Of a stretch of 64,000 nucleotides of DNA, positions 15,077-45,278 are shown in pieces (the first letter of the stretch is position 1; each line of letters begins with the position of its first letter). This DNA comes from Candidatus Poribacteria bacterium (lineage in GTDB: Bacteria > Poribacteria > WGA-4E > WGA-3G): NCBI GenBank assembly GCA_963665235.2, contig CAXXLX010000001.1:4064001-4128000 (forward strand), in the 5' to 3' direction. The position numbers were made by a program, and so were the translations under genes. The notes below the pieces were generated by a model that had not been told where the DNA came from, made no database searches, and saw only the letters and a list, made by a program, of their open reading frames with translations.

Positions 15077-17800
15077 TCACGGATTTATCTCCCAGAGCAG
15101 CACAGAGCCATCAGAGCCGCCACTTGCAAGGATTTTTCCATCCGGACTGAACGCGATGCTATTGACTGAAGATGTATGTCCAGCGAGTGTTTTCTTGTAT
15201 TCGCCTGTGTGTGCATCCCATAAGTTGAGCGTGGTGTCAAAAGATGCACTTGCAAGGGTTTTCCCATCCGGACTGAACGCTATACTGTACACCCAATCTG
15301 TATGTCCTATAAGCTTCGTCTTAGTTTTTCCTGTCTCTATATCCCACAAGAAAATGATACGTTCTGTCCCACCACTTGCAAGGGTTTTGCCATCAGGACT
15401 GAACGCGAGACTTCTAATCCACTCTGTCTGTCCGGTAAGTGTCATTTTGTTCTCACCCGTGTCAACGTCCCAGAGACGTATCGTATTGTCTTGATTGCCA
15501 CTTGCGAGGGTTTTGCCATCAGGACTGAATGTGACGCTTTCGGCCTCAGATTTATGTCCTGTGAGCGTTTTTTTGTGTTCGCCTGTGTGTGCATCATAGA
15601 GGCGGATGGTATTATCCCAACTTCCACTTGCAAGTATATTTCCATCGGGACTGAGGACTACTGTATCAACAACATCCGTATGTCCGGTGAGTGTTTTTTT
15701 GTGTTCACCTGTATGCGTATCCCAGAAGCGGATGCCTTCATCACTGCCACAAATAAGGGTTTTTCCATCAGGACTAAACACCAGACTGCGTGCCATATCC
15801 TTAAACCCATCTTTAGACCCATTGAGGGTTTTTATATGTTGCCTTGTGTCTACATCCCAAAAACGAATAATCCCATTGTAAGATCCACTTGCGATAAAAT
15901 CCCCGGTGGGGTTGAACGCCACACTCAAGACACCTTCAGAATGCCCAATGAACATATTTCTTGCTTTGCCTGTGCGTGCATCATAGAAGCGGATAGTGCC
16001 ATCGCCACTTCCACTCGCCAATGTTTTTCCATCAGGACTGAACGCTAAGTGTCGAACATATCGTGTATGCTCAGTGAGGGTTAGTCTATGTTCGCCAGTG
16101 TGTGCATCATAGAGGCGGATTGTTTCATCATAAAGTGCTGAGGTAGCGAGTGTTTTTCCATCCGGGCTAAACGCTAAGTTGTCAACATGCTCCCCATGTC
16201 CGGTGAGTGTCATCTTGAGTTCGCCTGTCTCTAAGTGGTGGAGGTAGACAATGCCATTTTTATCACCACCGATAGCGACCGTTTTTCCATCCGGACTGAA
16301 GGCTGCGCCTACAGTGGAGCAATCAGGGTGTAGAGCGAATGTTTTCTGGTGTTCACCTGTGATTGAATCCCATAGACTGATTTTGTCTTCCAAACTCACA
16401 CTTACAAGTGTCTGTCCATCTGGCGTGAATGATAACATGGTGGCACGCCAGGAATCTTTCGTGAGCGTATACTTCACCTCTCCGGTGATTGCGTCCCATA
16501 ATCGGATAGTGCCGTCTCGACTATCACTTGCGATTGTTTTTCCATCCGGACTGAATACCACACACCAGATAATATCTGTATGTCCGGTAAGTGTCGTTAG
16601 CGCACCCGTGCGCCTATCCCACAACGTAATGGGACCGTACACACTCCCGCTTGCAATGGTGTGTCCATCCGGACCGAATGCAAAGGAATCAACTTCACTC
16701 ATATCCTCTGTGAGCAGTGCAACCTCTTGATGTGTGGTCGTATCATAGAGCCAAATTCCGATTCCGCCCGCAACAGCGAGAAACTTTCCATCCGGTGAAT
16801 ACTGTATTTCAGTTATTTTCCCTTTGCCGAGCCGGGCTTTGGCATCTTCAGGTAAGTTCCATTGCATGGCATCTTGTGTTAGGTTGTTTTTCACTGTTTT
16901 TGCTCCTTTTGTTAGACCGTTGTTACTGTTTTCGCTTCGATTCGTATCGCCCCCAGCCCGGTTTTGCAATTCCGGTTTTAATTGAATATTAAGAACGACC
17001 GGTGCATCAACGATTTCAATAGTAGGTTCTGATTTTGCATCAACACTATATGGTTTCTGAAAATTAGCGGTGAATTGTTTGCTTGCACCCATCAACAAAA
17101 TAATCAAAATAGTAGATGCCCCTAAAGCTGCAAACGGGAGTAGCGGTTTGCTTCCTGATGGAGACAGTTGCTTTGTTGTGTCAATGCGCCGCATGATGTT
17201 TTCCGTTAAATCGGGTCGCAATGGAACACTGCCGAGGGTTTCCCGAATTATGTGTTCTTCACTTCTTAGCCGTTCTCGTGCGCGTTTAAGTCGGCTTTTA
17301 ACCGTGTTCGGAGATACCCCCAAAAACTTGCTAATCTCTTCACAACTCATTTCACCGAGATAGTGAAGGACCATCACTGTGCGTTCGCTCTCTGGTAGTT
17401 TTTCCATGAGCTTTTGCACAATTCGGCGGCGGTGTTCAACGGCTGCTTCCTCACGCTGTTCGCAGATATAGTCCGCATAAGCCGTTTTTTCGAGTGTTTC
17501 TTCATTGGTGGCTTCAAGCGATTGTGTTTGTAGTCTCTTTTTTCTGAACTCTGCTTTGCAACGTCTATCTGCGATTACGTAAAGCCATCCAGCAAATTGG
17601 TTCGGATTTTTTAACGTGGCAAGTTTTTTATGTGCCTGCAAAAAAGTGTCTTGCGTAATTTCTTCAGCAATATGAAAATCGCCTATTTTTCGCCAGGCAA
17701 GGGCGTGAACACTCTTTTGGTATTTTTTAACTAAATCGCTGAAAGCAGACTCGTCCCCTGATAATGTCCTCTGAATCAGTTCAACGTCATCTTTTTCCAT
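15077..17800 (-). CDS. ECF sigma factor - transmembrane helix - WD40 propeller fusion (copy 1, intact)
   Basis: sigma2 DFHIAEEITQDTFL...FAGWLY; sigma4 LPESERTVMVLHYL...TVKSRL; TM AALGASTILIILLMG; about 14 WD40 repeats (FSPDG...LWD). Confidence 0.92.
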   Translation of the reverse strand: MEKDDVELIQRTLSGDESAFSDLVKKYQKSVHALAWRKIGDFHIAEEITQDTFLQAHKKLATLKNPNQFAGWLYVIADRRCKAEFRKKRLQTQSLEATNEETLEKTAYADYICEQREEAAVEHRRRIVQKLMEKLPESERTVMVLHYLGEMSCEEISKFLGVSPNTVKSRLKRARERLRSEEHIIRETLGSVPLRPDLTENIMRRIDTTKQLSPSGSKPLLPFAALGASTILIILLMGASKQFTANFQKPYSVDAKSEPTIEIVDAPVVLNIQLKPELQNRAGGDTNRSENSNNGLTKGAKTVKNNLTQDAMQWNLPEDAKARLGKGKITEIQYSPDGKFLAVAGGIGIWLYDTTTHQEVALLTEDMSEVDSFAFGPDGHTIASGSVYGPITLWDRRTGALTTLTGHTDIIWCVVFSPDGKTIASDSRDGTIRLWDAITGEVKYTLTKDSWRATMLSFTPDGQTLVSVSLEDKISLWDSITGEHQKTFALHPDCSTVGAAFSPDGKTVAIGGDKNGIVYLHHLETGELKMTLTGHGEHVDNLAFSPDGKTLATSALYDETIRLYDAHTGEHRLTLTEHTRYVRHLAFSPDGKTLASGSGDGTIRFYDARTGKARNMFIGHSEGVLSVAFNPTGDFIASGSYNGIIRFWDVDTRQHIKTLNGSKDGFKDMARSLVFSPDGKTLICGSDEGIRFWDTHTGEHKKTLTGHTDVVDTVVLSPDGNILASGSWDNTIRLYDAHTGEHKKTLTGHKSEAESVTFSPDGKTLASGNQDNTIRLWDVDTGENKMTLTGQTEWIRSLAFSPDGKTLASGGTERIIFLWDIETGKTKTKLIGHTDWVYSIAFSPDGKTLASASFDTTLNLWDAHTGEYKKTLAGHTSSVNSIAFSPDGKILASGGSDGSVLLWEINP

Positions 17801-17826
17801 CAGAAACCTCCCGTAATCAATTTATA

Positions 17827-17856
17827 GTGACGCGATTTTAGGGTGGACAGGTTGCA
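17827..17856 (-). promoter_or_regulatory. Putative ECF autoregulatory promoter
   Basis: TGCAACC-N17-CGTCAC, conserved upstream of all four ECF-WD40 loci. Confidence 0.7.
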
Positions 17857-17958: not shown

Positions 17959-20686
17959 TTAGGGCTCTATATCTATTTCCCAGAGCAGCACAGAACCATC
18001 GAGACTACCACTCACGAGAGTTTTTCCATCAGGACTAAAAGCGATACTTCTGACTATATCTGTATGACCTGATAATGTTGCCTTTTCCTCTCCGGTATGT
18101 GCATTCCAGAGATAGATAACCTTGTTCCTGTCTCCACTTGCAAGGGTTTTTCCATCTGGACTGAACGCTAACGCGTAACTATGCATCCAATTCGTTCTTT
18201 TGCTTTTGAGTATCTTCATATTCTCGCCAGTATCAACATCCCAAAAGCAGATGGTAGTGTCGTCACTCCCACTCGTCAGCGTTTTTCCATCAGGACTGAA
18301 CGCTAAAGAACTTACCCAATCTACATGTCCTCTAAGCACCTTGTTCTTGCCAGTGTCAATATCCCAAAGGCGGATGGTCCCTTTATAAGTCGCACTTGCA
18401 AGCGTTTTTCCATCAGGACTGAACGTTAAATAGCTCAAGTGATTTGTATGACCTTTAAGCGTTTTCTTGCGTTCGCCTATGTGCACATCCCATAGGGATA
18501 TAGTCTTCTCGTCGTCAACACCACTTGCAACTGTATTTCCATCTGGACTGAATGCCCTGAGTACTGGGCTATAGGGATCATTCATATAAAACATTTTCTT
18601 GTGTTCACCTATGTGTACATCCCAGAGGTAAACACCATTGTCAGTCCCACAAGTAAGGATTTTTCCATCGGGACTGAATAGCATACTGAGTACCATATCA
18701 TTATTAAACCCATTGAGCGTTTTGATGTGCTGCCCTGTGTCTGCGTTCCACAAGCGGACAATCCCATCAGTGGATCCACTTGCAATAATGTTCCCATTCC
18801 AGTTGAACGTTACACTCATGACAGATTCTGAATGTCCAGTGAATGTATGTTTTTCGGTCCCCGTGTGGGCATCCCAGAAACGGATAGTGCCATCACCACT
18901 TCCACTTGCAAGTGTCTTTCCATTTGGACTGAACGCTAAGTCTCGAACATACCGAATATGTAGTGAAGTAAGTGTTAGCCGGTGTTCACCGGTGTTGACA
19001 TCCCACAGACGAATTGTTTCATCTATAGGTGATGAAGTGGCAAGTCCTTTTCCATCAGGGGTAAACGCTAAGTTGTCAACATGCTTCTCATGTCCGATGA
19101 GTTCCATCCCGAGTTCGCCTGTATCCAAGTCGTGGAGGTAGATGATGCCATTTTCACTGCCAATTGCGGCTGTTTTCCCATCCGGACTGAACGCTGCGCC
19201 CGTAACAGAACAATCGGGATGCAAAGCGAATGTTTTCTTGTGTTTACCTGTGCTCGAATTCCACAAACTGATTTTGTTGTCCCAACTCACACTTACAAGT
19301 GCCTGTCCGTTTGGCATGAATAATAACCTGGTGGCACGCCAGGAATCTTTCGTGAGCGTATACTTCATCTCTCCGGTGCTCACATTCCATAATCGGATAG
19401 TGCCGTCTCGACTATCACTTGCGACTGTTTTTCCATCCGGACTGAATGCTAAGCTTGAGATCCAATTTATATGTCCGGTGAGCCTTGTTTGCGCTCCGGT
19501 GCTTCTATCCCACAGGATAATGGTATCTGCACTTCCACTCGCCAGGGTGCGGCCATCAGCACTGAACGCCAAACTGTCAACTCCGCTTGCATGCCCTGTG
19601 AGCAGACTGGCCTCCTGATATGATGTTACATCGTAAAGCCAAATACCGATGCCACTCGCAACAGCCAGAAACTTACCATCTGGAGAATACTGTATCTCAT
19701 TTATCTTCCCTTTACCGAAACGCGTTTTGGCATCTTTTGGTAAGTTTAATTGCATAGCATCCTGTGCTAAGTTGTTTTTCATAGGTGTTTCTCCTCTCTG
19801 TAGACTTTCGTTGCTATTTTTGCCGGGGGACATATCGTTGCCAACACGGTTCTGTAAATCGGGTTTTGAATGAATATCAAGGATAATTGGCGCGTCAACG
19901 ATTTCAATCGTCGGTTCCGACTGCGCCTCAAGGTTATACGGCCGTTGAAAACGGGTGAAGTATTGATTGCTCACACCTATCAGCAAAATGGCTAAAACAG
20001 CTGACGAAACTAAAGCTGCCCACGGTACCGGTTTGCTCAACGGCGAGGGGGTTTGCTTCGGTGTGGCAACATTCCGCATGATGTTTTCTAATAGACTCGG
20101 ACTTAACGAAATACCACCGAGGGTTTCGTCGAATTATAGAGTCATCTGCTCTTAGCCGGTTTCGCGCACGGCTCAGTCGACTTTTAACGGTGTTCACGGA
20201 TACCCCTAAGAACTTGCTAATCCGTTCACAACTCATTTCACCGAGATAGTGCAGTATCATCACTGTGCGTTCGCTCTCAGGTAGCTTTTCCAACAAGCTT
20301 TCAACGACTTGACGGCGATGCTCCGCAGCGGTTTCCTCACGTTGTTCCGATACATAGTTGGCGTAAGCGGTTTTCTCCAATATCTCATCACTGACGGTTT
20401 CCATTGACTGCGCCACACGTTTCTGTTTTCGCTGCCACGCAATGCAACGTCTACTTGCGATGACATATAACCACCCAGCGAAACGCGCCGGCTCCCGTAA
20501 GGTCGACAATTTCTCATACACATGAAGAAAAGTGTCCTGTGTAATCTCCTCGGCAATATGAAAATCTTTGATTTTACGCCAGGCAAGGGCATGGACACTC
20601 TTTTGGTATTTTTTAACTAAATCGCTGAAAGCAGTTTCGTCCCCTGATAATGTCCTCTGGATCAGTTCAATGTCATCTCTTTCCAT
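17959..20686 (-). pseudogene. ECF sigma-TM-WD40 fusion (copy 2), split by a 1-nt insertion near 20128
   Basis: Sigma ORF (from 20686) and TM-WD40 ORF 17959-20079 join as IIRETLGGISLSPSLLENIMRN if one base is removed, matching copy 1 IIRETLGSVPLRPDLTENIMRR. Confidence 0.85.
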
Positions 20687-20723
20687 GGGAAACCTCCACA
20701 ATCAATTTTGGCATGCAATCATA

Positions 20724-20753
20724 GTGACGCGATTCTGAGGACGAAAGGTTGCA
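20724..20753 (-). promoter_or_regulatory. Putative ECF autoregulatory promoter
   Basis: TGCAACC-N17-CGTCAC. Confidence 0.7.
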
Positions 20754-21115
20754 GGATTTAATGAAAATTTGAAAAAAACGGCATTTTTAATCAGAAATAG
20801 CCAATTTTTACCCCATTTTCGCTCATTCTATAAACATATCGCCCCGCTGGGGCTAGCTCGTGCGGGGGTCCGTTTGCTATAAACATTCCGCCCCGCTGGG
20901 GCTGCGTTTTCGCATGAGAAGCGGGGAACTGTTTGCCCGAACACTGTGTCTGTTTTCTCCTAAACGATGAGCAACATAAACGCTATAATCTTGCCCGATG
21001 GCTCTTCGTTCCTAAATTCTTTTTCAATCATAATTATGCGTCCCAAGTCGAAAATGCACATTTGATAATAATAGAATTTGCGCAATTCTCTGGTAGATGC
21101 GGTTTGAAACCCCAC

Positions 21116-23257: not shown

Positions 23258-23296
23258 TGTGTTTGTTCCTTGTTTAGCGTTTCCGGTTTGCGTATT

Positions 23297-23790
23297 TTCT
23301 ATAAATATATCACCCCTACGGGGTTTAGCCTTTCCAGGGGACGACGTTTCTATAAATATATCACCCCTACGGGGTTTAGCCTTTCCAGGGGACGACGTTT
23401 CTATAAACATATCACCCCTACGGGGTTTAGCCTTTCCAGGGGACGACGTTTCTATAAACATATCACCCCTACGGGGTTTAGCCTTTCCAGGGGACGACGT
23501 TTCTATTACGGGGTTTAGCCTTTCCAGGGGACGACGTTTCTATAAATATATCACCCCTACGGGGTTTAGCCTTTCCAGGGGACGACGTTTCTATAAATAT
23601 ATCACCCCTACGGGGTTTAGCCTTTCCAGGGGACGACGTTTCTATAAATATATCACCCCTACGGGGTTTAGCCTTTCCAGGGGACGACGTTTCTATAAAT
23701 ATATCACTTTGTTTATCATTTTTGCTTTGGTGTACGGCTTTCCAGGGGACGACGTTTCTATAAATATATCACCCCTACGGGGTTTAGCCT
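23297..23790. repeat. Tandem array of about ten 51-bp palindromic units
   Basis: TTCTATAAATATATCACCCCTACGGGGTTTAGCCTTTCCAGGGGACGACGT repeated; one truncated unit near 23503 and one altered unit near 23707. Confidence 0.92.
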
Positions 23791-23985
23791 TAATTACCGA
23801 AGCTAAAAATTAATTTTCATACAGCTTGTGTTCGCATCGGCACAAACTGGAAAGTTTGTGCTACAAAAATCGACGGGCAATAAGTTTCCCTACTACGAAC
23901 GCTCTTACTGCTCGGCACAAACTGGGAAGTTTGTGCTACAAAAAATCGGCGGGCAATAAATTGTGGGACATTTATCGCCCAGGAG

Positions 23986-26037: not shown

Positions 26038-26438
26038 TTCTATAAACATATCGTCCCTACGGGACTAAAGATTTTTTTTCGAACTCAGGTTTCTATAAAT
26101 ATATCGTCCCTACAGGACTAAAGATTTTTCGAACTCAGGTTTCTATAAATATATCGTCCATACTGGACTAAAGATTTTTTTTCGAACTCAGGTTTCTATA
26201 AATATATCGTCCATACTGGACTAAAGATTTTTTTTCGAACTCAGGTTTCTATAAATATATCGTCCCTACAGGACTAAAGAGATTTTTTCGAACTCAGGTT
26301 TCTATAAATATATCGTCCCTACTGGACTAAAGATTTTTTTCGAACTCAGGTTTCTATAAATATATCGTCCATACTGGACTAAAGAGATTTTTTTCGAACT
26401 CAGGTTTCTATAAATATATCGTCCATACAGGACTAAAG
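26038..26438. repeat. Tandem array of eight 50-55 bp palindromic units
   Basis: TTCTATAAATATATCGTCCMTACDGGACTAAAGA(T)nCGAACTCAGGT repeated. Confidence 0.92.
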
Positions 26439-26539
26439 AAAACTTGGCTCAGGTAAAAAATGGGTGCATAAGAAAAATTTAACCCGTTCGGCCATTGCGT
26501 TTATTAAAACAATCACACACCCCTTTAACATGAACCTTA

Positions 26540-28377: not shown

Positions 28378-30399
28378 CTACTCCGTTAAATCCCAGAGTA
28401 TGACAGTGCTGTCCCGACTTCCACTGGCGAGTGTTTTTCCATCGGAAGAATAGGTGAGGGCACCGACAACGCCAACATGTCCGTTCAAAGTTTTGAGAAG
28501 TTCGCCGGTGGTGGCATTCCAAAAATTGATTTTCTCCCAACCCCCAGTGGCAAGGACATCGTCCTCGGGCGAATACGCTACGGAATTGATAACTTCGGTT
28601 TCTGTCGTAATGGTTTTCAGGAGCTCCCCCGTGGCAACATTCCAAAAATGGATAGCGTTATCGTCCATGTCGTGACTGATCGCAAGCGTTTGTCCATCGG
28701 GTGAATACGCCACAGAATTGATAACTTCGGTTTCTGTCGTAATGGTTTTCAGGAGCTCCCCCGTGGCAACATTCCAAACACGAATCGTGCTATCGGTACC
28801 GCCACTAACAAGGGTTTGTCCGTTCGAAGAGAATGCCACATCGGAAACCCCAGATGTATGTCCCTTCAATGTATTCAAAAGTTCCCCCGTCTGGGGATTC
28901 CACAATCGGATTGTTTTGTCCCAACTGCTGCTAGCGAGGGTTTGTCCATTGGGACTGAAAGCTACGGATGAAGTGCGCTGCGTATGTCCTTCAAGCAAAC
29001 CTTTACGTTCCCAAGTGCTAACATGCCATAACAGAATCGTGTTGTCGCCAGCTCCACACGCGAATGTTGTACCGTCCGGAGAATAGGCCATAGCTGCGGA
29101 ATTTTCAACAAAAAGTGTCTTGAGCAGTTTGTGAGTAGCTATATCCCAAATACGGACGACAGACCAATCTGAGGTTGTTAGTGTTTCCTCATTCGGCCCG
29201 TATATCACATTGCCGATAACATCGCTATATCCGGTGATGGTTTTTTGAGGTGCACCGGTGTCCACATCATAGAAATATATTCCATATCCGGAGGAAGCAG
29301 CAAGCGTACGCCCATCGGGAGAATATCTAAGGGCCCAGACCCTGCCATACTCGCCGCTAGGCATTTCGAGAGTGTGTGATAATTCCCCGGTGTTGGCATC
29401 AAAGCGTAGGACGGTGCCTTCATTGTCGGCACAGGCGTAAGTTCTCCCCATCGGGGAACAGAGAGCAAAATCCAAGGGTTTATCCCATGTGAAAGTTCTG
29501 ATTTTCTCTGTAGTGTCGGCGTTCCACAAACGAACTGTGCCATCGGAACTCGTGATAGCAAGTGTTTTGCTATCTTTTAGAAAATCGATGGAGGAAACAT
29601 TGCTAGGACTGTCGCTTTTGAGTATGTGCAAAAATTCGCCAGTATTGGCATCCCATAGGCAGACATTGTTATCGCCGCCATGCGTAGCAATTCGCTTGCC
29701 ATCCGGTGAATATATTAGGGAATCAATAGAATTCGCATGTGCCGCAAAGGTGAGTTGAAGTTCACCCGTAACAGCGTCCCAAAACCGGATGACCTCATCA
29801 TTTCCAGCACCTGCGATTTTACTGCCATCCGGACTAAACGCTAATATCAGCACCCGATTTGTCTGTTCAGAGAACGTTGCTTTCGATTCACCTGTGGCGA
29901 CATCCCATAATCGGATGTTTCCATCGTCGCCCACTGTAGCAAGCGTTTTGCCATTAGGGCTGAAGACCATGCTATGAACTCGCTCTGTATGTCCAGAGAG
30001 CGTTGCCTTCAGTTCACCCGTGGCGACATCCCATAATTTAATTACAGACAAACCGTCAGGATTCTCACTGACAAGTGTTTTGCCATCGGGACTGAAAACA
30101 ACAGTCCTGACGTAATCTGTATGTCCGGTCAGTAGATGCAGTTCTTCACAGGTTTCGGTATCATAGAGCCAGACCCCGATTGTGCTGGCGACGGCAAGTC
30201 GAGTGCCATCGGGTGAATACGCAAAATCAAAGATATACCCTTTGCCGAAACGGGCATAAGCCCCCTCCGGTAGATAGTTCTTGAGGTAATTTTGTGCAGA
30301 ACTCACAGGTCGCGAGCACAGCTCGCTCCTACAGAGGAAGGGCGACAGCACTATGAACAGTATAAGACATGTGAACAGATTTACATTTCCCACTGCCAA
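28378..30399 (-). CDS. Secreted WD40 repeat protein with a REP inside its leader
   Basis: Hydrophobic leader; YLPEGAYARFGKG cap; close paralog of 30461-32512. Confidence 0.88.
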   Translation of the reverse strand: MAVGNVNLFTCLILFIVLSPFLCRSELCSRPVSSAQNYLKNYLPEGAYARFGKGYIFDFAYSPDGTRLAVASTIGVWLYDTETCEELHLLTGHTDYVRTVVFSPDGKTLVSENPDGLSVIKLWDVATGELKATLSGHTERVHSMVFSPNGKTLATVGDDGNIRLWDVATGESKATFSEQTNRVLILAFSPDGSKIAGAGNDEVIRFWDAVTGELQLTFAAHANSIDSLIYSPDGKRIATHGGDNNVCLWDANTGEFLHILKSDSPSNVSSIDFLKDSKTLAITSSDGTVRLWNADTTEKIRTFTWDKPLDFALCSPMGRTYACADNEGTVLRFDANTGELSHTLEMPSGEYGRVWALRYSPDGRTLAASSGYGIYFYDVDTGAPQKTITGYSDVIGNVIYGPNEETLTTSDWSVVRIWDIATHKLLKTLFVENSAAMAYSPDGTTFACGAGDNTILLWHVSTWERKGLLEGHTQRTSSVAFSPNGQTLASSSWDKTIRLWNPQTGELLNTLKGHTSGVSDVAFSSNGQTLVSGGTDSTIRVWNVATGELLKTITTETEVINSVAYSPDGQTLAISHDMDDNAIHFWNVATGELLKTITTETEVINSVAYSPEDDVLATGGWEKINFWNATTGELLKTLNGHVGVVGALTYSSDGKTLASGSRDSTVILWDLTE

Positions 30400-30460
30400 T
30401 CCTCCTTATTATCAAATTTAAGGTAGTAGATACGCTCCGCCGGGTTTCCGTAACATAAAA

Positions 30461-32512
30461 TCACTTGGTTAAATCCCATAGTATCACAGTGCTATCCCGG
30501 CTGCTGGTGACGAGGGTTTTACTGTCTGAAGAATAGGTGATAGAATAGATAGTCCCTTTATGTCCGGTCAAAGTTTTGAGAAGTTCGCCGGTGGTGGCAT
30601 TCCAAAGACAGGCTTCTCCCTCTAAACCGTCGGTGGCAACGACCTGACCATCGGGTGAATAGACTACAACATAAGCGTGTCTGGCATGTTTATCAGCAAT
30701 GGTTTGCAGGAGCTCTCCCGTGGCAACATCCCAAAAGCGGATATTGTAATCGCTACTGTCTCCGGCGGTTGCAAGCGTTTTTCCATCGGGTGAAAATGCC
30801 ACAGAATTGATAGAATCGGCTTCTGTCGTAATGGTTTTTATGAGCTCCCCCGTGGCAACATTCCAAAACCGAATTGTGCCATCATCATCCCCACTTGCAA
30901 GGGTTTGTCCGTTTGGCGAGAATGCCACATCGGAAACCCCAGATGTATATCCATTGAAGGTTTTTAAGTTTTCGCCTGTGCGGGGATTCCAGAGGCGAAT
31001 CGTTTTGTCCCAACTCCCGCTGGCGAGGGTTTGTCCATCTGGACTAAATGCTACTGAGCTTATCCATTTTGTATGGCCTTTGAGAAGCAGCCTATCTTCC
31101 CATGTGGTGGCATTCCATAAGAGAATTGTTGCGTCCCTTGTTCCACACGCGAGGGTTGCACCGTCCGGAGAATAGGCTATATCTCTTATATAACTTTCAG
31201 TCTGTTCGGTGTGTCCAAACCGACCTACAGTGGAAAGTTTTTTGAGGCGTTGGCCGGTGTGAACATCCCAAATACGCACAATACCACTCCCTTCACTTGC
31301 AAGTGTTTTCTCATCCGGCGCGTATATCGTAGTGCCTAAAACATCAGAATATCCGGTGATGGTATTTTGAAGTGCACCGGTGTTTACACTGTAGAAATAT
31401 ATCTCTGAGCCGCTGGAGACCGCAAGTGTCTGTCCATCGGGAGAATATCTAAGGTCATTAACACTCTTGCGGCCAGGCATGTCGAGGGTATGTAATAACG
31501 TCCCGGTGTTGGCATCAAAGAGTAGTACCGTGCCTTTATTGTCGTCACAGGCGTAAGTTCTACCCATCGGGGAACAGAGGACAGACTCCAAGGGTTTATC
31601 CCAGGTGAAAGTTTCGATTTCCTCTGTGGTGTTGGCGTTCCACAAACGAACTGTGCCATCGGATTCACCGGAACTCGCGATAACAAGCGTTTTGTTATCT
31701 TTTAGAAAATCGATAGAAGAAACATTCGTAGGACTGTTGTCTTTGAGTATGTGCAAAAATTCGCCTGTATTGGCATCCCATAGACAGACGTTGTTATCGC
31801 CGCCATGCGTAGCAATTCGCTTGCCATCCGGTGAATATATTAGGGAATCAATAGAATTCGCATGCGCCGCAAAGGTGAGTTGAAGTTCACTGGTAACAAC
31901 ATCCCACAAACGGATTACTTCATCACCAGCACTTGCAAGCTGACTGCCGTCAGGACTAAAAGACAGCTCCCCGCCTCTGTATCCTGTAAAGGTGGTTTTG
32001 TGTTCACCGGTGGCACTGTCCCATAATCGAATAGTCCTATCCTCACCTGCACCTGCTAAGGATTTACCGTCTGGACTGAAAATAAGATTTCTATTCCGTT
32101 TATTACTTCCAGGGAGTGTCGACTTAAGGTCGCCCGTGGCTACATCCCATAATTTAATTGCAGGGGGAGCCTCGGGGTCGTCGGGGTCGCCGGGGTAGTC
32201 ATCAAAATCCGCACTGACAAGCACTTTGCTATCAGGACTGAAACCGACAAGCGCGACATAATTTGTATGTCCAGTCAGTAGATGCAGTTCTTCACAGGTT
32301 TCGGTATCGTAGAGCCAGACCCCGAGTGTGCTGGCGATAGCAAGTCGAGTGCCATCGGGGGAATACGCAAAATCAAAGATATACCCTTTGCCGAAACGGG
32401 CAATAGCCCCTTCAGGAAGGTAACGTCCATTAAAATTCTGGGCAAAACCGTAAGGTATCCACATCAGTGACGTAAGGATGAACGGTATGATGAATAGACA
32501 GGTTGTTTTCAA
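30461..32512 (-). CDS. Secreted WD40 repeat protein
   Basis: Signal peptide GFA-Q; YLPEGAIARFGKG cap; WD40 repeats. Confidence 0.9.
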   Translation of the reverse strand: MKTTCLFIIPFILTSLMWIPYGFAQNFNGRYLPEGAIARFGKGYIFDFAYSPDGTRLAIASTLGVWLYDTETCEELHLLTGHTNYVALVGFSPDSKVLVSADFDDYPGDPDDPEAPPAIKLWDVATGDLKSTLPGSNKRNRNLIFSPDGKSLAGAGEDRTIRLWDSATGEHKTTFTGYRGGELSFSPDGSQLASAGDEVIRLWDVVTSELQLTFAAHANSIDSLIYSPDGKRIATHGGDNNVCLWDANTGEFLHILKDNSPTNVSSIDFLKDNKTLVIASSGESDGTVRLWNANTTEEIETFTWDKPLESVLCSPMGRTYACDDNKGTVLLFDANTGTLLHTLDMPGRKSVNDLRYSPDGQTLAVSSGSEIYFYSVNTGALQNTITGYSDVLGTTIYAPDEKTLASEGSGIVRIWDVHTGQRLKKLSTVGRFGHTEQTESYIRDIAYSPDGATLACGTRDATILLWNATTWEDRLLLKGHTKWISSVAFSPDGQTLASGSWDKTIRLWNPRTGENLKTFNGYTSGVSDVAFSPNGQTLASGDDDGTIRFWNVATGELIKTITTEADSINSVAFSPDGKTLATAGDSSDYNIRFWDVATGELLQTIADKHARHAYVVVYSPDGQVVATDGLEGEACLWNATTGELLKTLTGHKGTIYSITYSSDSKTLVTSSRDSTVILWDLTK

Positions 32513-32632: not shown

Positions 32633-33037
32633 TAACACGGGAGCTTGACAATAAATGTCCGTTTGCACTAAACCCTATAAATATATCGTCCTTGAAGAGC
32701 GGGCTGCTTGCCCGAATACTGGGACTAAGAAAGCGGAGACATCTGCTTCTATAAATATATCGTCCCTACGGGACTAAGAGAAATGAAACGGAGAACGGAA
32801 GACCCAAACTGGAAGTTTATGATACAATAAAGCACACAAACTGGAAGTTTATGATACAATAAAGCACACAAACTGGAAGTTTATGATACAATAAAGCACA
32901 CAAACTGGAAGTTTATGATACAATAAAGCACACAAACTGGAAGTTTATGATACTATAAAGCACACAAACTGGAAGTTTATGATACAATAAAGCACACAAA
33001 CTGGAAGTTTATGATACAATTTCAATTAGAAATGGTA
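32633..33037. mobile_element. Composite of two MITE-like elements with seven 32-bp REP tandem units (32804-33020)
   Basis: Left part matches 3824-3976; right part matches 3983-4226 including the AAATGGTA end; unit CACAAACTGGAAGTTTATGATACAATAAAGCA. Confidence 0.75.
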
Positions 33038-33084: not shown

Positions 33085-35403
33085 CTAAGGGTCAAGTTCC
33101 CAGAAAAGGATAGTGCCATCCCAACCCCCACTAACAAGCGTGCGACCATCAGGACTAAACGACACGCTAGAGATTACATCTGTATGTCCTTTGAATGTTC
33201 TGATAAGTTCTCCTGTGTTTGTGTCCCATAGCCGAATAGTCTTGTCCTTACCCCCGCTAACTATGGTATTGCCATCCGGACTAAACGATACGCTATAGAC
33301 CCCATCTGTATGTCCAGTAAATGTTCTGATAATTTTTCCTGTCCTAATGTCCCATAGCCGAATAGTTTTGTCCCCACCCGCACTAACGACGGTATTTCCA
33401 TCCGGGCTAAACGACACGGTTTCGACCCAACCCAGATGTCCTATAAGTGTTCTGATAAGTTGCCCAGTGCCTGCGTCCCATAGACGAATAGTCTCATCCA
33501 AACAGCCACTAACAACGGTGTTGCCATCCGGACTAAATGCCACGCTAACGACACGCTCCGTATGTCCTGTGAGTGTTCTGATAAGCTGTCCTGTGTCTGT
33601 GTCCCATAGACGAACAGTGCTGTCATAACTGCCACTAACGATGGTGTTTCCATCCGGACTAAAAGACACACTGTAGGGGCGTTCTGTATGTCCTTTGAGT
33701 GTTCTGATAAGTTCTCCTGTGTTTGTGTCCCATAGACAGATAGTCTTGTCCGCACTCCCACTAACTACGATATTCCCATCCGGACTAAACGACACGCTAC
33801 AGACAAACCATGTATGTCCCGTGAGTGTTCTAATAAGTTGCCTTGTGTTAATGCCCCATAGACGAATAGTATCGCCGTCACCCGCACTAACTAGGGTGTT
33901 GCCATCCGGACTAAACGACACACTACTGGCATCATCGATATGTCCTGTGAGTGTTCTGATAAGTTCTCCTGTTTTCGTATTCCACAGACGAATAGTATCG
34001 TCCCTACCCCCACTAGCTATGGTGTTGCCATCAGGACTAAATGACACGGTACGGACTAAATCGGTATGTCCCGTAAGTGTTCTGATAAGTTCTCCGGTGT
34101 TCGTATTCCCAAGGCGGATAGTCTCGTCATCACTTCCACTAACGATGGTATTGCCATCCGGACTAAACGACACACTATTGACCCCATCGATATCTCCTGT
34201 GAGTGTTCTGATAAGTTCTCCGGTGTTTGCGTCCCATAGCCGAATAGTCTCGTCCGCACTTCCACTAACGATGGTATTGCCATCCGGACTAAACGACGCA
34301 CTACGGAGACATATGTCCTGTGAGTGTTCGAGTTCTCCTGTGTTCGTGTCCCATCGAATAGTATGTCCCGTGAGTGTTCTGGACTAAGTTCGGTATGTCC
34401 CGGTGTTCTAATAAGTTGCCCAGTGTTTGTGTCCCATAGACGAATTGTCTCCCACTAACCATCATCTAAATGACACACTAACGATGGTATTGCCATCCGG
34501 ACTAAATGACATCGCTAACGACCTATGGAATCCTGTAAATATCTCCGTAAATCCAAATCCCGATGAGTGTTCTGCCATAAGTTCTCCTTACAGTGTTTGT
34601 GTCCCATAGCATCTTGTGCTAACCTGTTTTCCATAGGTGCCTCTCCTCTCTGTCTTGTCCCAACTCCCACGGTTATGTAAATCAAGCAAGGACAATGCGA
34701 CCATCTGGACTGCGCAAAGACACGGCTAACGACCGTATCTCGCATGTCCTGTGAGCGTTCTGATAAGTTCTCCTGTTTGCTTCAGTGAGGCAACATTCCG
34801 CATGATGGTTTCTAATAGATTTGGCGTAACGAAATACCACCGAGGATTTCGCGAATTGTCATCCGCTCTTAGCCGTTCGCGCGCACGGCTCAGCCGACTT
34901 TTAACGGTGTTCACGGATACACCTAAGAACTTGCTAATCCGTTCGCAACTCGTTTCACCGAGATAGTGCAGTATCATTACTGTCCGTTCGCTCTCAGGCA
35001 GCTTTTCCAACAAGCTTTCAACGACTTGACGGCGACGCTCCGCAGCGGCCTCCTCTCGCTGTTCCGATACATAGTTGGCATAAGCGGTTTTCTCCAATAC
35101 CTCATCACTAACGGTTTCCATTGACTGCACCACACGTTTCTGCTTTCGCTGCCATGCAATGCAACGCCTACTCGCGATGACATATAACCACCCAGCGAAA
35201 CGCGCCGGCTCGCGTAAGGTCGGCAGTTTCTCATACACATGAAGAAAAGTGTCCTGTGTAATCTCTTCGGCAATATGAAAATCTTTGATTTTACCCCATA
35301 CAAGCGCGTGAACACTCTTTTGATATTTTTTAACTAAATCGCTGAAAGCAGACTCGTCACCTGATAATGTCCTCTGAATTAGTTCAATGTCCTCTCTTTC
35401 CAT
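33085..35403 (-). pseudogene. ECF sigma-WD40 fusion (copy 3) with scrambled or deleted middle; sigma part and C-terminal WD40 repeats intact
   Basis: Sigma ORF 34726-35403 nearly identical to copy 2; remnants MENRLAQDAM and IGIWIY inside 34300-34790; clean WD40 ORF 33085-34173. Confidence 0.8.
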
Positions 35404-35443
35404 CAGAAACCTCCCGTAATCAATTTTGATTTATCGTTATATA

Positions 35444-35473
35444 GTGACGCGATTCTGAGGAAGAAAGGTTGCA
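35444..35473 (-). promoter_or_regulatory. Putative ECF autoregulatory promoter
   Basis: TGCAACC-N17-CGTCAC. Confidence 0.7.
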
Positions 35474-35552
35474 GGATTCAATAAAAAATTTGAAAAAACA
35501 GCTTTTTTTTAATCAGAAATAGCCAATTTTTACCTATTTTCGCTCATGTATA

Positions 35553-35710
35553 TAAACTCAAGTTGCTAGGGACAAGATTTTCGGCACACAAGAAACGGCT
35601 CCTGTTGAAAGCCATCGTGCCGCTCCGGAGTTTTGTAGCGCGAACTACTACTTTGCACCCTTATGCCACAAACTGGAAAGTTTGTGCTACTATGGGGCAA
35701 CTTGCGTTAT
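35553..35710. mobile_element. MITE-like element carrying an inverted REP doublet
   Basis: Ends TAAACTCAAGTTGC / GCAACTTGCGTTA; internal GTAGCG...CACAAACTGGAAAGTTTGTGCTAC; relative at 47223-47368. Confidence 0.55.
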
Positions 35711-36033
35711 TATAGAGCAAATCCCATGGATATGAAAGTAATTTATTACTTGGCAACTTGGGTTATAATAAATACTCACGGATTTATGTCCCAAATCTAA
35801 CAGACGAACCCACTGTATAGGAAATAGTCTAGCCCTTTTGACAGATATTGTCAAGAAAAATAACCCAACTTTGCAGAGGCATTTAGTTTTTGGTTTTTTC
35901 AAGCGTTTTGCGGGGAAGATGGTGAGCGAAGCTCGCTCTTGAGGAGCGGGCTGCTTGCCCGAATACTAGAAGAGTCGCGAGCACAGCTCGCTCCTACAGA
36001 AGATTGACCCGCTTCCGATGTGACTACAAAAGA

Positions 36034-37926: not shown

Positions 37927-38004
37927 GAAAATCAACTCCTTTGAGATAGACATCCTCTATAAACATATCGTCCATATTGGACTAAGAGGATTTTAAGGAT
38001 GCGT

Positions 38005-39888
38005 TTATGGGTTTATCTCCCAAAAAATCAACGTATCATCATACCCCATACTAACAAGCGTTTTGCTATCCGGTGCAAACACGATAGACTGAATAAATCC
38101 TATATGTCCTGTAAGCGTTTGCAAAAGTTCCCCGGTATCCACATTCCAAAGTTTAATTTCGCCTGAATGTGCACTCGCCACTGTACGTAGTGTGGGTGAA
38201 AACGCCATAGAAAGGATATTTTTCCCAGGCGTGATTGTTCTTAAACGTTCGCCTGTGGCAACATCCCAGACCCGGATTGTACCATCTCTGCTTGAACTGA
38301 CAAAAATATCACCCGATGGTGAAAATGCTATATCGTTGATAACTCCTTTATGCGCTACGATTGTTTTCACAGTTTCGCCTGTGGCAACATCCCAGACCCG
38401 AATTGTGCCAACTCTGCTTGCACTCACAAGGATATCCCCCGATGGTGAAAATGCTATATCGTAGACATTTTCTGCATGCCCAGCAAGCGTGCTTTTCAAC
38501 TTGCCTGTGTCAACACGCCACAGATGGATTAGATTATCAGGACCACAACTACCGAGTAGGCTTCCATCTGGACTGAATGCTACATCACCAATGCGTCCGG
38601 CGTTTGCATGCATGATAGTTTGATTGCGTCCTGTGTCCATATCAAGTAAAACCAAAGTCCCTTCATAATTTCCACATGCAAACGTCACATTATCCGGAGA
38701 GTAGTCAGCAACCGTTACGCGATTCAGTTCAACGTCAAGCGTTCTTATCACCGTCCCTGTCTGTGGATTCCTCAACTGAATCTCACCCGGACCTAATGGA
38801 CCGAATACACATGCAAGTGTCTGTCCATGCGAAGAGTACATCATAGCTCTTGGAAATATCATTGCATGTTCAGCGATGGTGTGCCGTAAACTGCCGGACG
38901 CACTATCCCAAATACATAAAGCATTATCAGGACTATAACTTGCCAGTGTGCTCCCATCTGGCGAAAAAACAAGGGACGTAACTCTCTCCGAATGGTCTTT
39001 GAAGTTTTTTACACGTTCACCGGTAGCGATATCCCATAATTGGAGACCGTCGACATTTTCAGTATGCCCCCCCGGAACAAATGTCTTTCCATCAGGACTG
39101 ACTGCTATTGCGTAAACGCCGGATGCATTCCCTGTCAACGTCAATTTGAGCTGTGCGGTGTTAACGTCCCACACACGAATTATGCCGGAACTATTCCCTG
39201 TGACTACCGTTTTACTGTCTGGAGACAATGCCATACAATAAATTTTTGCATCGCCAGCTGTGTCACTGAGTGGGTGAGGTTGGAGGGTTTTTATGAATTC
39301 CCCGGTATCTGCATCCCAAACATGAATTTTTTCATCGTATCCAGAACTCATAAGCATTTCTCCATCAGGAGAATATAGGACATTAGAGACACGTTCCGCA
39401 TGTCCAGCGATAGTGCGGTGTAGCTCTCCACTTTTTACATTCCAAAACCGAATAAACTCATCCCTGCCACCACTTGCAAGTATATCCCCATCAGGACTGA
39501 ATGCTACAGAATACACGCTCTGTCCTGTTAGCGTTGTTTTGAGCTCGCCGGTGTTGACATCCCACAATCGAATAGTGCCATCGTAACTGCCACTCGCGAG
39601 TGTGTTGCCATCAGGACTGAAATCCACTGAAGAAACGGGGCTTGTATGTCCTGTGAACAAATCAAGGGGTTGACCTGTGCGCGCATCATAGAGCCAGATG
39701 CCTATGGAACTCGCTACAGCAAGTCGTGTGCTGTCTGGAGAATATGCAAGGTGATGTACCTGCCCCTTTCCGATGCGGGTTCTGGCACCTTCGGGCAGGT
39801 AGTTTTTCATAAATTCTTGTGCAAAAGCGTTTGACAAACATAGCACAGAAGTAGCAAGAAACGCTAAAAACGAAAGTCTTGTTTTCAT
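38005..39888 (-). CDS. Secreted WD40 repeat protein
   Basis: GAGG RBS, MKTRLSF...AFA-Q signal peptide, YLPEGARTRIGKG cap. Confidence 0.9.
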   Translation of the reverse strand: MKTRLSFLAFLATSVLCLSNAFAQEFMKNYLPEGARTRIGKGQVHHLAYSPDSTRLAVASSIGIWLYDARTGQPLDLFTGHTSPVSSVDFSPDGNTLASGSYDGTIRLWDVNTGELKTTLTGQSVYSVAFSPDGDILASGGRDEFIRFWNVKSGELHRTIAGHAERVSNVLYSPDGEMLMSSGYDEKIHVWDADTGEFIKTLQPHPLSDTAGDAKIYCMALSPDSKTVVTGNSSGIIRVWDVNTAQLKLTLTGNASGVYAIAVSPDGKTFVPGGHTENVDGLQLWDIATGERVKNFKDHSERVTSLVFSPDGSTLASYSPDNALCIWDSASGSLRHTIAEHAMIFPRAMMYSSHGQTLACVFGPLGPGEIQLRNPQTGTVIRTLDVELNRVTVADYSPDNVTFACGNYEGTLVLLDMDTGRNQTIMHANAGRIGDVAFSPDGSLLGSCGPDNLIHLWRVDTGKLKSTLAGHAENVYDIAFSPSGDILVSASRVGTIRVWDVATGETVKTIVAHKGVINDIAFSPSGDIFVSSSRDGTIRVWDVATGERLRTITPGKNILSMAFSPTLRTVASAHSGEIKLWNVDTGELLQTLTGHIGFIQSIVFAPDSKTLVSMGYDDTLIFWEINP

Positions 39889-40085
39889 GAAAGAAACCTC
39901 AATTTTAGGGTGAAGTTTGCCGTCTAGACGCGGTGCGAAACTAAGAGCATCAATTTCGCCAGAGAAGAAAGTATACCATATTTTGTGAAAAAACAGAAGG
40001 ATTTTTTCAAAAAAGGAGCCCCCCTGCAAGGATGTGTAAAGTTTTGGTACACCATTCTATAAACATACCGCCCCGCTGGGGCTAT

Positions 40086-42041
40086 TTACCGTTCAAGATT
40101 TAGCACGGTTAAGTCCCATAACAGAATTGTGCTGTCAGAACTCACACTTGCAAGCGTTTTGCCATCCGGTGAGAATAGGACAGCATTGACGCGGTGTGTA
40201 TGTCCCATAAAGGTGTGAAGGTGTTTGCCTGTTAATGCGTCCCAAATGTTGATGTAGTTTGGGTCTTCGCTGGCACTTGCAAGTATTCTATCATCGGGAG
40301 AATACGCGAGAGACGTTACGTGTCCAGCTCCCTCTATTGGCGGAAGTAGTAGGTCGCCGGTGTGTGTATTCCACAAACGGATAGTGCCATCCTCGCTGCC
40401 GCTTGCAAGTGTACTGCCGTAAAAAGCATATACTACAGCCGTGACACCCCCTTCATGTCCGGTGAGCGTTTTGTAGTGGGTGTGTGTATTTACGTCCCAT
40501 AATTGGATTGTCTTGTCTTGACTACCACTGGCGAGCGTTTTACCATCAGGTGAGAACGTTACGGAAGAGACGCGCGCGGTATGCTCGGTAAAAGTTGCCA
40601 GACGTTCACCAATGTGATACAGCTCCCCCGTGCGAATTTCCCACAAACTGACCGTGTTGTCCCCGTCACTGTGCTTATTGGCACCCCTTCTAGGTGATTT
40701 GCTCCCACCGCCGCTTGCAAGGAGAGTTTGGTCAGGAGAAATAGCAACGGCATATATAGTATCTTTATGTCCTGTAAAACTTCCGAGGAACCGCCCGGTT
40801 CCTACGTCCCACAGACGCGCCTTTTTAGAGGTCCCGCCGGTAGCGAGTAGTTTGGCATCGGAAGAATATACCACGGAATAGACCTTACAACCGGGTTCAG
40901 TAGCTGTCTTCAGCAGCTCACCGGTCTGTGGATTCCACAATTGAATTTTCCTTTCACTGCCGCAGGTAAGGGTGCTGCCATCAGGTGAATATGTTGCGGC
41001 GTAAATTTCTGAAGATAGGTGTCCCGTAATCTCTTTTTTCAGTTCTCCTGTAGCCACATCCCAAAACCGGATTATGCCATCGTCAGCACCGGCTGCAACT
41101 GTCTTTCCATCAGGTGAATATGTCACAGAATTGAACTCTTCTCCACCTCCGAAGGTTTTCAGAAGTTTTGCCGTGCTAACCTCCCAAACACTAACGGTTT
41201 CCCAAGAACTTCCGGTAACGAGTTTGCGTCCGTCGGGTGAAAATTCCAGAGATTCGGGCCGTTCATCCGCTTTCTCTACACTTTTCAAGCGTTCACCTGT
41301 CTCCAAATCCCAAAAGTAGAGTGGACCATGACCACCACAAGCGAGAATTTTGCGCTGTGGTGAAATTGCAGCAACATCGAAATCTTCTTCAATCAGAACA
41401 TTTTTTATATTATTACCGGCTTGTGCATCCCAATACTCAATATAGGATTCGGACTTGTCGGATCTCCCGATAGTGAGAAATAACGCACCGTCCGGTGAAT
41501 ATGTTAGAGCATAAGTAGGTGTAACATCAGATTCAATAGCGGTTTTTAGCTGTTTACCTGTTTGCACATCCCAGAATCGGTTAGATTCGTCATAATCAAC
41601 ACTGGCGAGTATATCTCCGGCAGGATTAAATGTTATGAAACTAATATCATCTTCATGCCCAATACATGTGGCTTTATGTTTACCTGTGTTTGCGTCCCAT
41701 AATCGGATTGTGTTGTCTTCACTGCCCGTTGCAAACGTTCTACCGTCCGGACTGAAGACGATACACTCAATCGGTCCCGTATGCCCCGTGAGCAGGTCAA
41801 GGGGTTCGCCTGTTTGCACATCATAGATATGGATGCCGATAGAGGTGGCGACAGCGAGACGTTTGCCATCGGGAAAATATTTTAGCTGATATATCTTTCC
41901 TTTTCCGAGGCGCGCTTTGGCACCAATAGGTAAGCCTAAGTGTGTGTGATTTTGGGAGAAGGCGGTTGTTGTCAAAAAAGTTAGTAGATAAAATGTAGAG
42001 ATTATCGGTAAAAACGTCAGCAGGATGTTTGCTATTTTCAT
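40086..42041 (-). CDS. Secreted WD40 repeat protein
   Basis: AAGGAG RBS, MKIANIL...AFS-Q signal peptide, LGLPIGAKARLGKG cap. Confidence 0.9.
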   Translation of the reverse strand: MKIANILLTFLPIISTFYLLTFLTTTAFSQNHTHLGLPIGAKARLGKGKIYQLKYFPDGKRLAVATSIGIHIYDVQTGEPLDLLTGHTGPIECIVFSPDGRTFATGSEDNTIRLWDANTGKHKATCIGHEDDISFITFNPAGDILASVDYDESNRFWDVQTGKQLKTAIESDVTPTYALTYSPDGALFLTIGRSDKSESYIEYWDAQAGNNIKNVLIEEDFDVAAISPQRKILACGGHGPLYFWDLETGERLKSVEKADERPESLEFSPDGRKLVTGSSWETVSVWEVSTAKLLKTFGGGEEFNSVTYSPDGKTVAAGADDGIIRFWDVATGELKKEITGHLSSEIYAATYSPDGSTLTCGSERKIQLWNPQTGELLKTATEPGCKVYSVVYSSDAKLLATGGTSKKARLWDVGTGRFLGSFTGHKDTIYAVAISPDQTLLASGGGSKSPRRGANKHSDGDNTVSLWEIRTGELYHIGERLATFTEHTARVSSVTFSPDGKTLASGSQDKTIQLWDVNTHTHYKTLTGHEGGVTAVVYAFYGSTLASGSEDGTIRLWNTHTGDLLLPPIEGAGHVTSLAYSPDDRILASASEDPNYINIWDALTGKHLHTFMGHTHRVNAVLFSPDGKTLASVSSDSTILLWDLTVLNLER

Positions 42042-42061
42042 GCTAATTGAGCTCCTTAATA

Positions 42062-42565: not shown

Positions 42566-42581
42566 ATGGGAAACGCAACCC

Positions 42582-45278: not shown

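Follow-up and report, generated by a model that had tools for sequence, protein, structure and literature searches.

We report that twelve co-oriented genes for WD40 propeller proteins (loci L1 to L12, positions 15077-45278, minus strand) lie in a row in a stretch of Candidatus Poribacteria DNA, and that three of them encode fusions of an extracytoplasmic function (ECF) sigma factor, a predicted transmembrane (TM) segment and a large propeller. We consider it likely, with a probability of roughly 0.6, that these fusions act as autoregulated one-component transmembrane ECF sensors in a duplication-built array that also holds exported and cytoplasmic paralogs, and that the sigma domain is released by proteolysis. 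The stretch analysed, hereafter the window, comprises 64,000 nucleotides (G000:C1:4064001-4128000) of a 5.31-Mb genome of 4 contigs with a GC content of approximately 47.7%. The locus had been noticed from its sequence and open reading frames (ORFs), and the ORF listing bears out the layout given in this original prediction, i.e. twelve consecutive propeller loci on the minus strand with no other recognisable gene between them, the gaps being occupied by tandem hairpin repeats and short, unconvincing ORFs.

Domain architecture and predicted topology

L1 (15077-17800) is intact and encodes 907 amino acids (aa), comprising an ECF sigma factor, a TM segment (approximately aa 219-240), a conserved juxtamembrane piece, a spacer, a short conserved motif referred to as the cap, and a 14-blade WD40 double propeller. 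L12 (42582-45278) is likewise an intact ECF sigma-TM-WD40 fusion (898 aa), while the third such fusion, L2 (17959-20701), is represented in the assembly by two overlapping ORFs of 706 and 255 aa, the result of an extra base at position 20128. The N-terminus of L1 scores 99.5 bits against TIGR02937, for which the cut-off is 42.9 (NCBIfam), and Pfam identified Sigma70_r2 (PF04542) together with Sigma70_r4_2 (PF08281) in both sigma pieces that form separate ORFs, those of L2 and L8. With a score above the family threshold and with sigma2 and sigma4 as the only sigma regions, these modules belong to the ECF (group IV) sigma-70 factors. The nearest solved structure to the L1 sigma domain is SigW (5wuq, E 2.1e-25), and a look-up of the N-terminal 310 aa of L1 in the ESM Atlas returned generic ECF sigma clusters only.

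WD40 families were found in all seven propeller-bearing ORFs that were submitted to Pfam. The propellers are 583-675 aa long, which by length corresponds to about 14-16 blades. In the AlphaFold model of L1, which was based on 55 aligned relatives and has a mean predicted local distance difference test score (pLDDT) of 76.6, residues 315-907 form 14 four-stranded blades at a pLDDT of about 90; the sigma domain has values of approximately 70-84 and residues 186-314 are below 50. The best solved match to the propeller in Foldseek is 2ymu_A, which is entitled 'highly repetitive propeller structure' and is 41% identical over 592 columns (E 8.4e-58); eukaryotic tandem double propellers come next. 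Length, modelled strands and the tandem propellers among the PDB matches thus agree on a WD40 tandem double propeller of about 14 four-stranded blades. The cap, which had been described as the common start of the propeller in intact loci, is present in all 11 loci that keep an N-terminus. As a mark of the loci of this array it fails, since 47 ORFs of the genome carry it, in most cases directly after a Sec-type signal peptide. It is the conserved N-terminal start of the propeller family and may close the ring as a velcro strand.

Leader and TM classes were assigned by a hydropathy heuristic (KD, hydropathy score) throughout. L1, L2 and L12 have a 19-aa segment with a KD of 2.2-2.4 that ends 76-77 aa ahead of the cap, which predicts a sigma domain in the cytoplasm and a propeller in the periplasm. 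Only about 35 residues separate sigma4 from the TM helix, a stretch that is modelled as one short helix with a pLDDT below 50, and no Pfam family was detected at E values up to 1 in the sigma4-TM linker or in the TM/juxtamembrane piece of the three paralogs searched. Moreover, the gaps at 20702-21115 and 35404-36033 were searched for small ORFs and gave no convincing one and no anti-sigma candidate. The earlier remark that no separate anti-sigma gene is visible therefore holds for the linker and for the two gaps examined.

The other loci encode soluble proteins or, in the case of L8, a decayed fusion. An N-terminal hydrophobic segment (KD 1.8-2.4) ending 7-23 aa ahead of the cap is present in L4 (23986-25926, 646 aa), L6 (28378-30399), L7 (30461-32512), L9 (36034-37953), L10 (38005-40029, likely start at 39888) and L11 (40086-42071, likely start at 42041), and in most of these six an A-x-A-like site follows it, as in a Sec-type signal peptide. 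The leader of L6, a close paralog of L7, is atypical in having no basic n-region. No hydrophobic leader segment was detected by the heuristic in L3 and L5 (KD -0.46 and -0.01). L3 (21116-23461) is a divergent cap-WD40 gene with a likely start near 23257, the first 68 codons of its ORF overlapping a tandem repeat, and L5 (26540-28369, with the ORF extending to 28645) probably starts at the ATG at 28369, a few bases past the stop of L6. Hydropathy hence reproduces the proposed division into four sigma loci, six loci with signal peptides and two without leader, apart from L8, which has no TM segment. Since L8 has lost the TM segment, linker and cap, only three fusions, and not four as had been proposed, are membrane-anchored.

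The two interrupted sigma loci differ in kind. The break in L2 is the one extra base (+1 nt) at 20128, and every contig that covers the site in four public runs is without one base at 20128 or 20130 (deletion depth/total depth 17.4/17.4, 19.8/19.8, 29.7/29.7 and 3.64/3.64 in the respective runs). L2 is therefore probably an intact gene of approximately 908 codons in the population. In L8 (33085-35403), stops separate a 225-aa sigma piece from a 362-aa WD40 piece; the sigma module has been retained and runs directly into a WD40 blade, after which stops and frameshifts follow at 34173-34726. A frameshift common to L2 and L8 was considered and rejected, the indels being +1 nt in L2 versus -5 and -1 nt in L8. 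What remains open of L8 (33085-34173) is made up of 42-residue WD40 repeats of unusual regularity (126-bp period, 9.7 copies, 77% matches), in contrast to the diverged blades of the neighbouring loci.

Promoters of the sigma loci

An ECF-type promoter, GCAACC-N16-GCGTC, on the minus strand in each case, precedes every sigma locus of the array. That of L1 is positioned at 17829-17855, 55 nt upstream of the start, and those of L2, L8 and L12 at 20726-20752, 35446-35472 and 45317-45343, respectively. The pattern GCAACC-N15-19-CGTC has 5 matches in the window, where 0.48 are expected, and four of the five lie 51-69 nt upstream of the starts of these loci. When 31 upstream regions of L1 and its orthologs are aligned, the element proves to be conserved; as a sequence it is of the AAC...CGT type that ECF factors have in front of their own genes. 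Genome-wide, G[CT]AACC-N16-[GT]CGTC gave 20 matches against 8.75 expected by composition, 11 of which precede sigma-fusion genes, of the WD40 as well as the BNR sensor class (see below), at a distance of 35-82 nt; seen from the genes, 10 of the 17 sigma-family genes of the genome have the motif 37-84 nt from the start. Because each array sigma locus carries its own ECF-type promoter, it most likely drives its own transcription.

The soluble genes differ in this respect. With short motif patterns, including relaxed ones, the promoter motif was not found upstream of the soluble genes of the array, and no 7-mer is common to 8 or more of 31 upstream regions of cap genes of the signal-peptide type.

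Module exchange between loci

The four sigma modules of the array form one clade (support 96/94), within which L2 and L8 pair at 100/99. Identity is 93.4% between the sigma modules of L2 and L8, 74.6% between those of L1 and L2 (propellers 65.6%) and 71.9% between those of L1 and L12 (propellers 40.8%). The propeller tree, built on full-length sequences (23 of the 42 cap propellers, with 575-660 aa per row), joins L1 with L2 (100/100), L12 with L10 (98/93), the latter pair with L6 and L7 (98/98), and L4 with L9 and L11 (100/99), the propeller of the anchored L12 hence being sister to that of the soluble L10. On these full-length propellers the approximately unbiased (AU) test rejected a single clade, with p 0.0028 when all four sigma-fused propellers were constrained and p 0.026 when L1, L2 and L12 were. 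In the sigma tree, WD40-type fusions are interleaved with BNR-type fusions, with 3 changes in all 200 bootstrap trees.

Since sigma and propeller trees disagree, module exchange is indicated: leader, sigma and sensor modules have recombined between copies, and most of these events are old. The separate module trees that had been suggested as a check are thus incongruent, and the proposed modular design stands, e.g. the sigma module of L2 is 93% identical to that of L8, yet its propeller groups with that of L1. The sole recent copying tract that we found is a 792-nt tract of 89.5% identity shared by L2 and L8, which begins about 134 nt ahead of the start, ends at approximately codon 217 and so covers the sigma module and no propeller.

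Variability, selection and synteny

Ratios of nonsynonymous to synonymous substitution rates (dN/dS) were derived from 40 L1-like coding sequences (approximately 375 pairs with dS 0.1-1.2) and amount to 0.09 for the sigma domain, 0.21 for the TM segment and juxtamembrane piece, 0.34 for the spacer and 0.26-0.30 for the propeller. Among orthologs, variability is highest at blade positions 14-16, 18 and 34, which we take to be the top-face loops of WD40 propellers. The propellers of paralogs are 40-66% identical and sit on long branches, and orthologs of L1, L3, L4, L5, L7, L11 and L12 occur in other genera at 53-72% identity.

Comparison with related genomes, another of the checks that had been suggested, shows that gene content and order differ between genera and are not strictly conserved. 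G017 has an array of at least 14 loci with orthologs of L1, L3, L11 and L12 at 58-65% identity, in which the adjacency of L12 and L11 is kept; in G007 a shorter array adjoins the same PAP2 and deacetylase flank; G013 possesses two tandem fusions only; and the arrays of G031 and G034 contain L1-, L3-, L4-, L5- and L7-like genes in other numbers and orders. Contigs from three samples of one study show 0-2 differences per 0.6-1.6 kb to the listed pieces of the array, the exception being one 742-nt piece with 10 differences. The locus is dynamic over long times and gives no sign of rapid or programmed variation.

The family in the genome and the phylum

The same sigma family is carried by 17 ORFs of the genome (at least 54% identity), 7 of them of the WD40 type, and a TM segment is found at approximately aa 220-250 in 13 of the 15 that were checked. 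When ten C-terminal parts were submitted to Pfam, seven proved to be BNR/Asp-box (Sortilin-Vps10-like) propellers and one a WD40 propeller, while two were without match. WD40-type and BNR-type fusions can be aligned with each other over the TM helix and a juxtamembrane piece of about 45 residues (9 of 14 sequences, the other 5 having been left out for want of the anchor motif). Outside the array, one sigma-family locus (2611073) adjoins a soluble cap-WD40 gene and another (750368) has a capless WD40 ORF approximately 7 kb away; elsewhere in the genome most sigma fusions are alone or beside other fusions, with no soluble WD40 neighbour.

Matches at E ≤1e-30 occur in 25 of 31 related genomes (at least 70 in G009, 57 in G018 and 47 in G017), and 104 of 121 sampled genomes of the phylum match at E ≤1e-50. 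By family, the numbers are 79/81 (f1), 7/9 (f2) and 17/19 (f3), and 0/11 with this query in five further families. The protein search gave at least 7945 clusters at E ≤1e-10 among 8000 candidates scored; those that are named bear only 'sigma-70 family RNA polymerase sigma factor' or 'hypothetical', and all 78 listed related loci belong to metagenome-assembled genomes of Candidatus Poribacteria or to 'uncultured bacterium'. A literature search found no paper linking Poribacteria with ECF sigma factors. The array is a local piece of a very large and apparently undescribed WD40 family.

Several relatives and other loci differ in architecture. In G031, G034 and G017, too, propellers of the L3 and L5 types have no leader. 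Versions of the same sigma family without TM segment occur in L100/L101 (joined, 28462-31083) and L102 (15059-17605), where a hydrophilic linker of about 50 residues joins sigma4 to the cap; these may resemble what L8 once was. A second ECF sigma family is joined directly to a cap-WD40 propeller, likewise without TM segment, in L102 (2386-4941), L100/L101 (joined, 15352-18057) and L018 (6551-9313). These fusions sit inside syntenic arrays of the relatives, and a motif search found none in the present genome. A second array of the genome, G000:C1:1574249-1589575, consists of six tandem signal-peptide WD40 genes (approximately 840-854 aa) of two alternating subtypes and has no sigma fusion. Finally, the BNR-type sensor L002 (G000:C1:1254946-1258062) scores 116.8 bits against the glycosylhydrolase model NF045728, below its cut-off of 175, a hint that some sensors may bind glycans.

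Flanks and intergenic repeats

The array is bordered by genes unrelated to the WD40 loci: a RecQ-like helicase, a GT2 glycosyltransferase, a HEAT/PhyH protein and a P460-like protein on one flank, and PAP2, polysaccharide deacetylase and aldo-keto reductase genes on the opposite one.

Tandem arrays of short units are found upstream of L3 (23296-23791, 51-bp unit with a small hairpin), L4 (26038-26439, 53-bp hairpin unit, 7.6 copies) and L7 (32805-33020, 32-bp unit, 6.8 copies) and between L12 and L11 (42134-42566, 30-bp unit with a 6-bp-stem hairpin, 14 copies). The array at 32805-33020 shares a 17-nt start with an array of 28-bp units at 13802-13883, outside the WD40 loci. A unit resembling repetitive extragenic palindromic (REP) elements, i.e. 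a perfect 5-3-5 hairpin followed by GATATRTTTA, comes after many genes of the array on the gene strand and also forms tandem arrays (14877-14939, 20841-20853, 23296-23791, 26038-26439, 32762-32774, 37970-37982 and 40070-40082). Genome-wide the hairpin is present at 337 of 493 GATATRTTTA sites, 17 of them in the window and all of these on the minus strand. As the repeats are arranged head-to-tail and have no spacers, we rejected a reading as clustered regularly interspaced short palindromic repeats (CRISPR) or as a diversity-generating retroelement, for which no dedicated search was made; the ORF and domain checks revealed no reverse-transcriptase gene among the ORFs examined.

Relation to known systems

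By its described features, the nearest known group appears to be the planctomycetal ECF57 (formerly ECF01-Gob), which is characterised by WD40-like C-terminal extensions and by two conserved cysteines, one each in sigma2 and sigma4 (PMC8999054), and which has a mean of 5.3 copies per planctomycete genome (PMC7826278); planctomycetal ECF factors with WD40 domains are also mentioned elsewhere (PMC8567305). Like ECF57, the fusions of the array combine an ECF core with a long WD40-rich C-terminal extension, have no separate anti-sigma factor and have many paralogs per genome. The two cysteines are present as well, C81 being invariant in 55 of 55 aligned fusions and C153 conserved in at least 90%. 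Unlike in ECF57, there are up to 70 or more matches per genome, and the sigma/TM/juxtamembrane module is also joined to BNR/Sortilin-type propellers. The host phylum differs too (Poribacteria, not Planctomycetes), although the taxonomic range of ECF57 is a description rather than a strict criterion. In the passages of the review cited here, the group is filed under 'protein interaction' and not under proteolysis, and no fusion of this type is described as experimentally characterised (PMC8999054).

The working model for release is IutY of Pseudomonas putida (ECF243), a sigma/anti-sigma hybrid that is released by Prc and RseP and that is, as far as those passages go, the sole experimentally shown case in which cleavage of such a fusion activates the sigma factor (PMC8999054). 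As in IutY, a single polypeptide would combine a sigma domain on the inside with a TM segment and a periplasmic portion. IutY, however, has a FecR-type anti-sigma part and a TonB-dependent receptor as partner, neither of which was found in the array proteins or beside the array; no anti-sigma domain of the IutY type lies between sigma4 and the TM segment, and the outer part of the array fusions is a 14-blade propeller. The actinobacterial groups ECF48, ECF52 and ECF53 (e.g. SCO4117) also consist of sigma factor, TM segment and extracytoplasmic sensor, and proteolytic activation is predicted for them (PMC8999054). Their anti-sigma domain is a zinc finger and their outer part is carbohydrate-binding or rich in proline; none of these features was found here.

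The structural match 2YMU is, judged by its entry title, a stand-alone repetitive propeller with neither leader, cap-plus-sigma context nor anchor. Hybrid two-component systems of Bacteroides have a periplasmic double beta-propeller in a single-protein transmembrane regulator that senses host-derived glycans. To these the likeness is a functional analogy only, the repeat family being another one and the output a histidine kinase/response regulator instead of a sigma factor.

Discussion

Taken as autoregulated one-component sensors, the fusions would have arisen as follows. The array would have grown by tandem duplication of one Poribacteria-specific WD40 family, and leader and sigma modules would have been exchanged between the copies. 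The core of the family (an N-terminal cap and 14 blades) is modelled as a tandem double propeller. L1, L2 and L12 would be one-component transmembrane signalling proteins with the sigma domain inside and the propeller outside, and ligand binding or damage at the propeller would trigger regulated proteolysis, both at the juxtamembrane piece and inside the membrane. Such cleavage would free the sigma domain, as in IutY and in the SigW/RsiW pair, where the sigma factor is freed by regulated proteolysis. The paralogs with signal peptides would be periplasmic or secreted binding proteins and those without leader cytoplasmic. The array evolves under purifying selection, with change concentrated at the top-face positions of the blades.

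Several points weigh against this reading. The topology of the sensors was read from one source, the hydropathy heuristic, and proteolytic release is proposed purely by analogy, the juxtamembrane region having a pLDDT below 50 and no known domain. A gene for an RseP-type site-2 protease (Peptidase_M50) is present at G000:C1:3436234-3437823, and because RseP is universal this says little. Promoter use, autoregulation and co-transcription were likewise deduced from DNA sequence. Searching the genome with short motif patterns, we found no target of the promoter motif besides sigma genes, the remaining 9 matches corresponding to chance expectation, and the nearly identical -35/-10 elements of all paralogs raise the question of cross-talk. 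When the propeller tree was restricted to the N-terminal 280 aa (a quick tree), the AU test did not reject a single sigma-fused clade (p 0.51 and 0.49). Finally, the TM-less fusions of relatives and the leaderless paralogs show that propellers are at work in the cytoplasm too, and the family is therefore not exclusively extracytoplasmic. The earlier description of the propellers as extracytoplasmic thus agrees with what is predicted for the anchored and signal-peptide loci and does not extend to L3, L5 and the TM-less fusions.

Four other explanations were weighed. The original prediction saw in the locus a variable receptor repertoire, in which outward propellers sense and soluble paralogs act as co-receptors or decoys or, as donor cassettes, reshuffle receptor specificity. 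Such a repertoire would account for the exchange of leader and propeller modules, for the kinship of the L12 propeller with that of L10, downstream on the same strand, for array content that varies between genera and for the variable top face of the blades. The claim of rapid variation is not supported, in view of the divergence of the paralogs, the persistence of their orthologs across genera, the dN/dS of the propellers and the near identity of the three samples' contigs to the window where listed; nor is that of donor cassettes, given that no propeller carries a recent conversion tract. The soluble genes are, moreover, without ECF promoter, and outside the array a soluble cap-WD40 neighbour was seen at one sigma locus only, apart from the distant capless ORF near 750368. 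We therefore regard a variable repertoire as quite unlikely. Slightly better placed, and still unlikely, is the possibility that the propeller, as a bulky domain in the periplasm or at the surface, reports envelope or host-derived stress by being unfolded or degraded, the paralogs being mainly structural or adhesive and the sigma fusions monitoring them. Consistent with this, the sigma domain is nearest to SigW and RpoE, which are envelope-stress factors, the soluble exported paralogs far outnumber the sensors (47 cap ORFs versus 17 sigma-family ORFs, 7 of them WD40-type) and poribacterial WD40 proteins have been treated as eukaryote-like repeat proteins (PMC3909097, in the part cited here). 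One generic signal is, however, hard to fit to up to 70 or more sensor paralogs per genome and two propeller classes, and the top-face positions are the most variable, as expected of binding surfaces.

Alternatively, the fusions might never release the sigma domain and act while tethered, like ToxR or CadC, by recruiting RNA polymerase upon ligand binding. The short distance of about 35 residues between sigma4 and the membrane would suit such a mode of action, as would the fact that neither an anti-sigma domain nor a recognisable protease site was found. We know of no sigma factor that acts while tethered in this way, any sigma subunit has to associate with the core polymerase and travel with the initiation complex, and IutY, the sole characterised TM-extended sigma factor named in the cited part of the review, needs cleavage by Prc and RseP (PMC8999054); tethered action is accordingly improbable, somewhat more so than a variable repertoire. 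That the array is an artefact of assembly, stringing together dispersed paralogs, is scarcely credible. It is true that the listed contigs of the four runs each cover at most approximately 1.6 kb of the array and that the only frameshift checked, that of L2, is apparently an assembly error or variant; but the copies differ by at least 25% in DNA, save for the 792-nt tract, and collapse or chimeras are therefore unlikely. The contig is furthermore 4.36 Mb long, and comparable arrays occur in other Poribacteria assemblies, one of them with the same PAP2 and deacetylase flank.

The reading as autoregulated one-component sensors leaves room for an extension that we consider about as doubtful as the variable repertoire, namely that each anchored sigma-propeller heads a unit of exported paralogs (L12 followed by L11-L9, and L8 by L7-L3), so that sensing of the sponge host induces soluble binders of the same ligand class. 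If true, dozens of such units per genome would amount to a combinatorial, self-amplifying recognition of host or matrix molecules, and many 'eukaryote-like' WD40 proteins would be parts of a signalling network and not effectors that mimic the host.

Abundant WD40 domains in Poribacteria were reported by Kamke 2014, in the cited part of which sigma factors are unmentioned (PMC3909097), and WD40 proteins are counted among the 'eukaryote-like' repeats that are invoked for the manipulation of the host by sponge symbionts. Our data suggest that part of the poribacterial WD40 load belongs to a transmembrane ECF-sigma signalling family, with interchangeable sensor domains of the WD40 or BNR type. Most of the genomes sampled from one poribacterial order contain this family, many of them in tens of copies. 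Because fusions of the ECF57 type are not described as characterised in the review passages cited above, the short, putatively autoregulated units of the array would be convenient test cases for the switching of anchored sigma factors. With defined promoter, sigma and sensor domains, the family may offer a handle on how an uncultured symbiont reads its surroundings.

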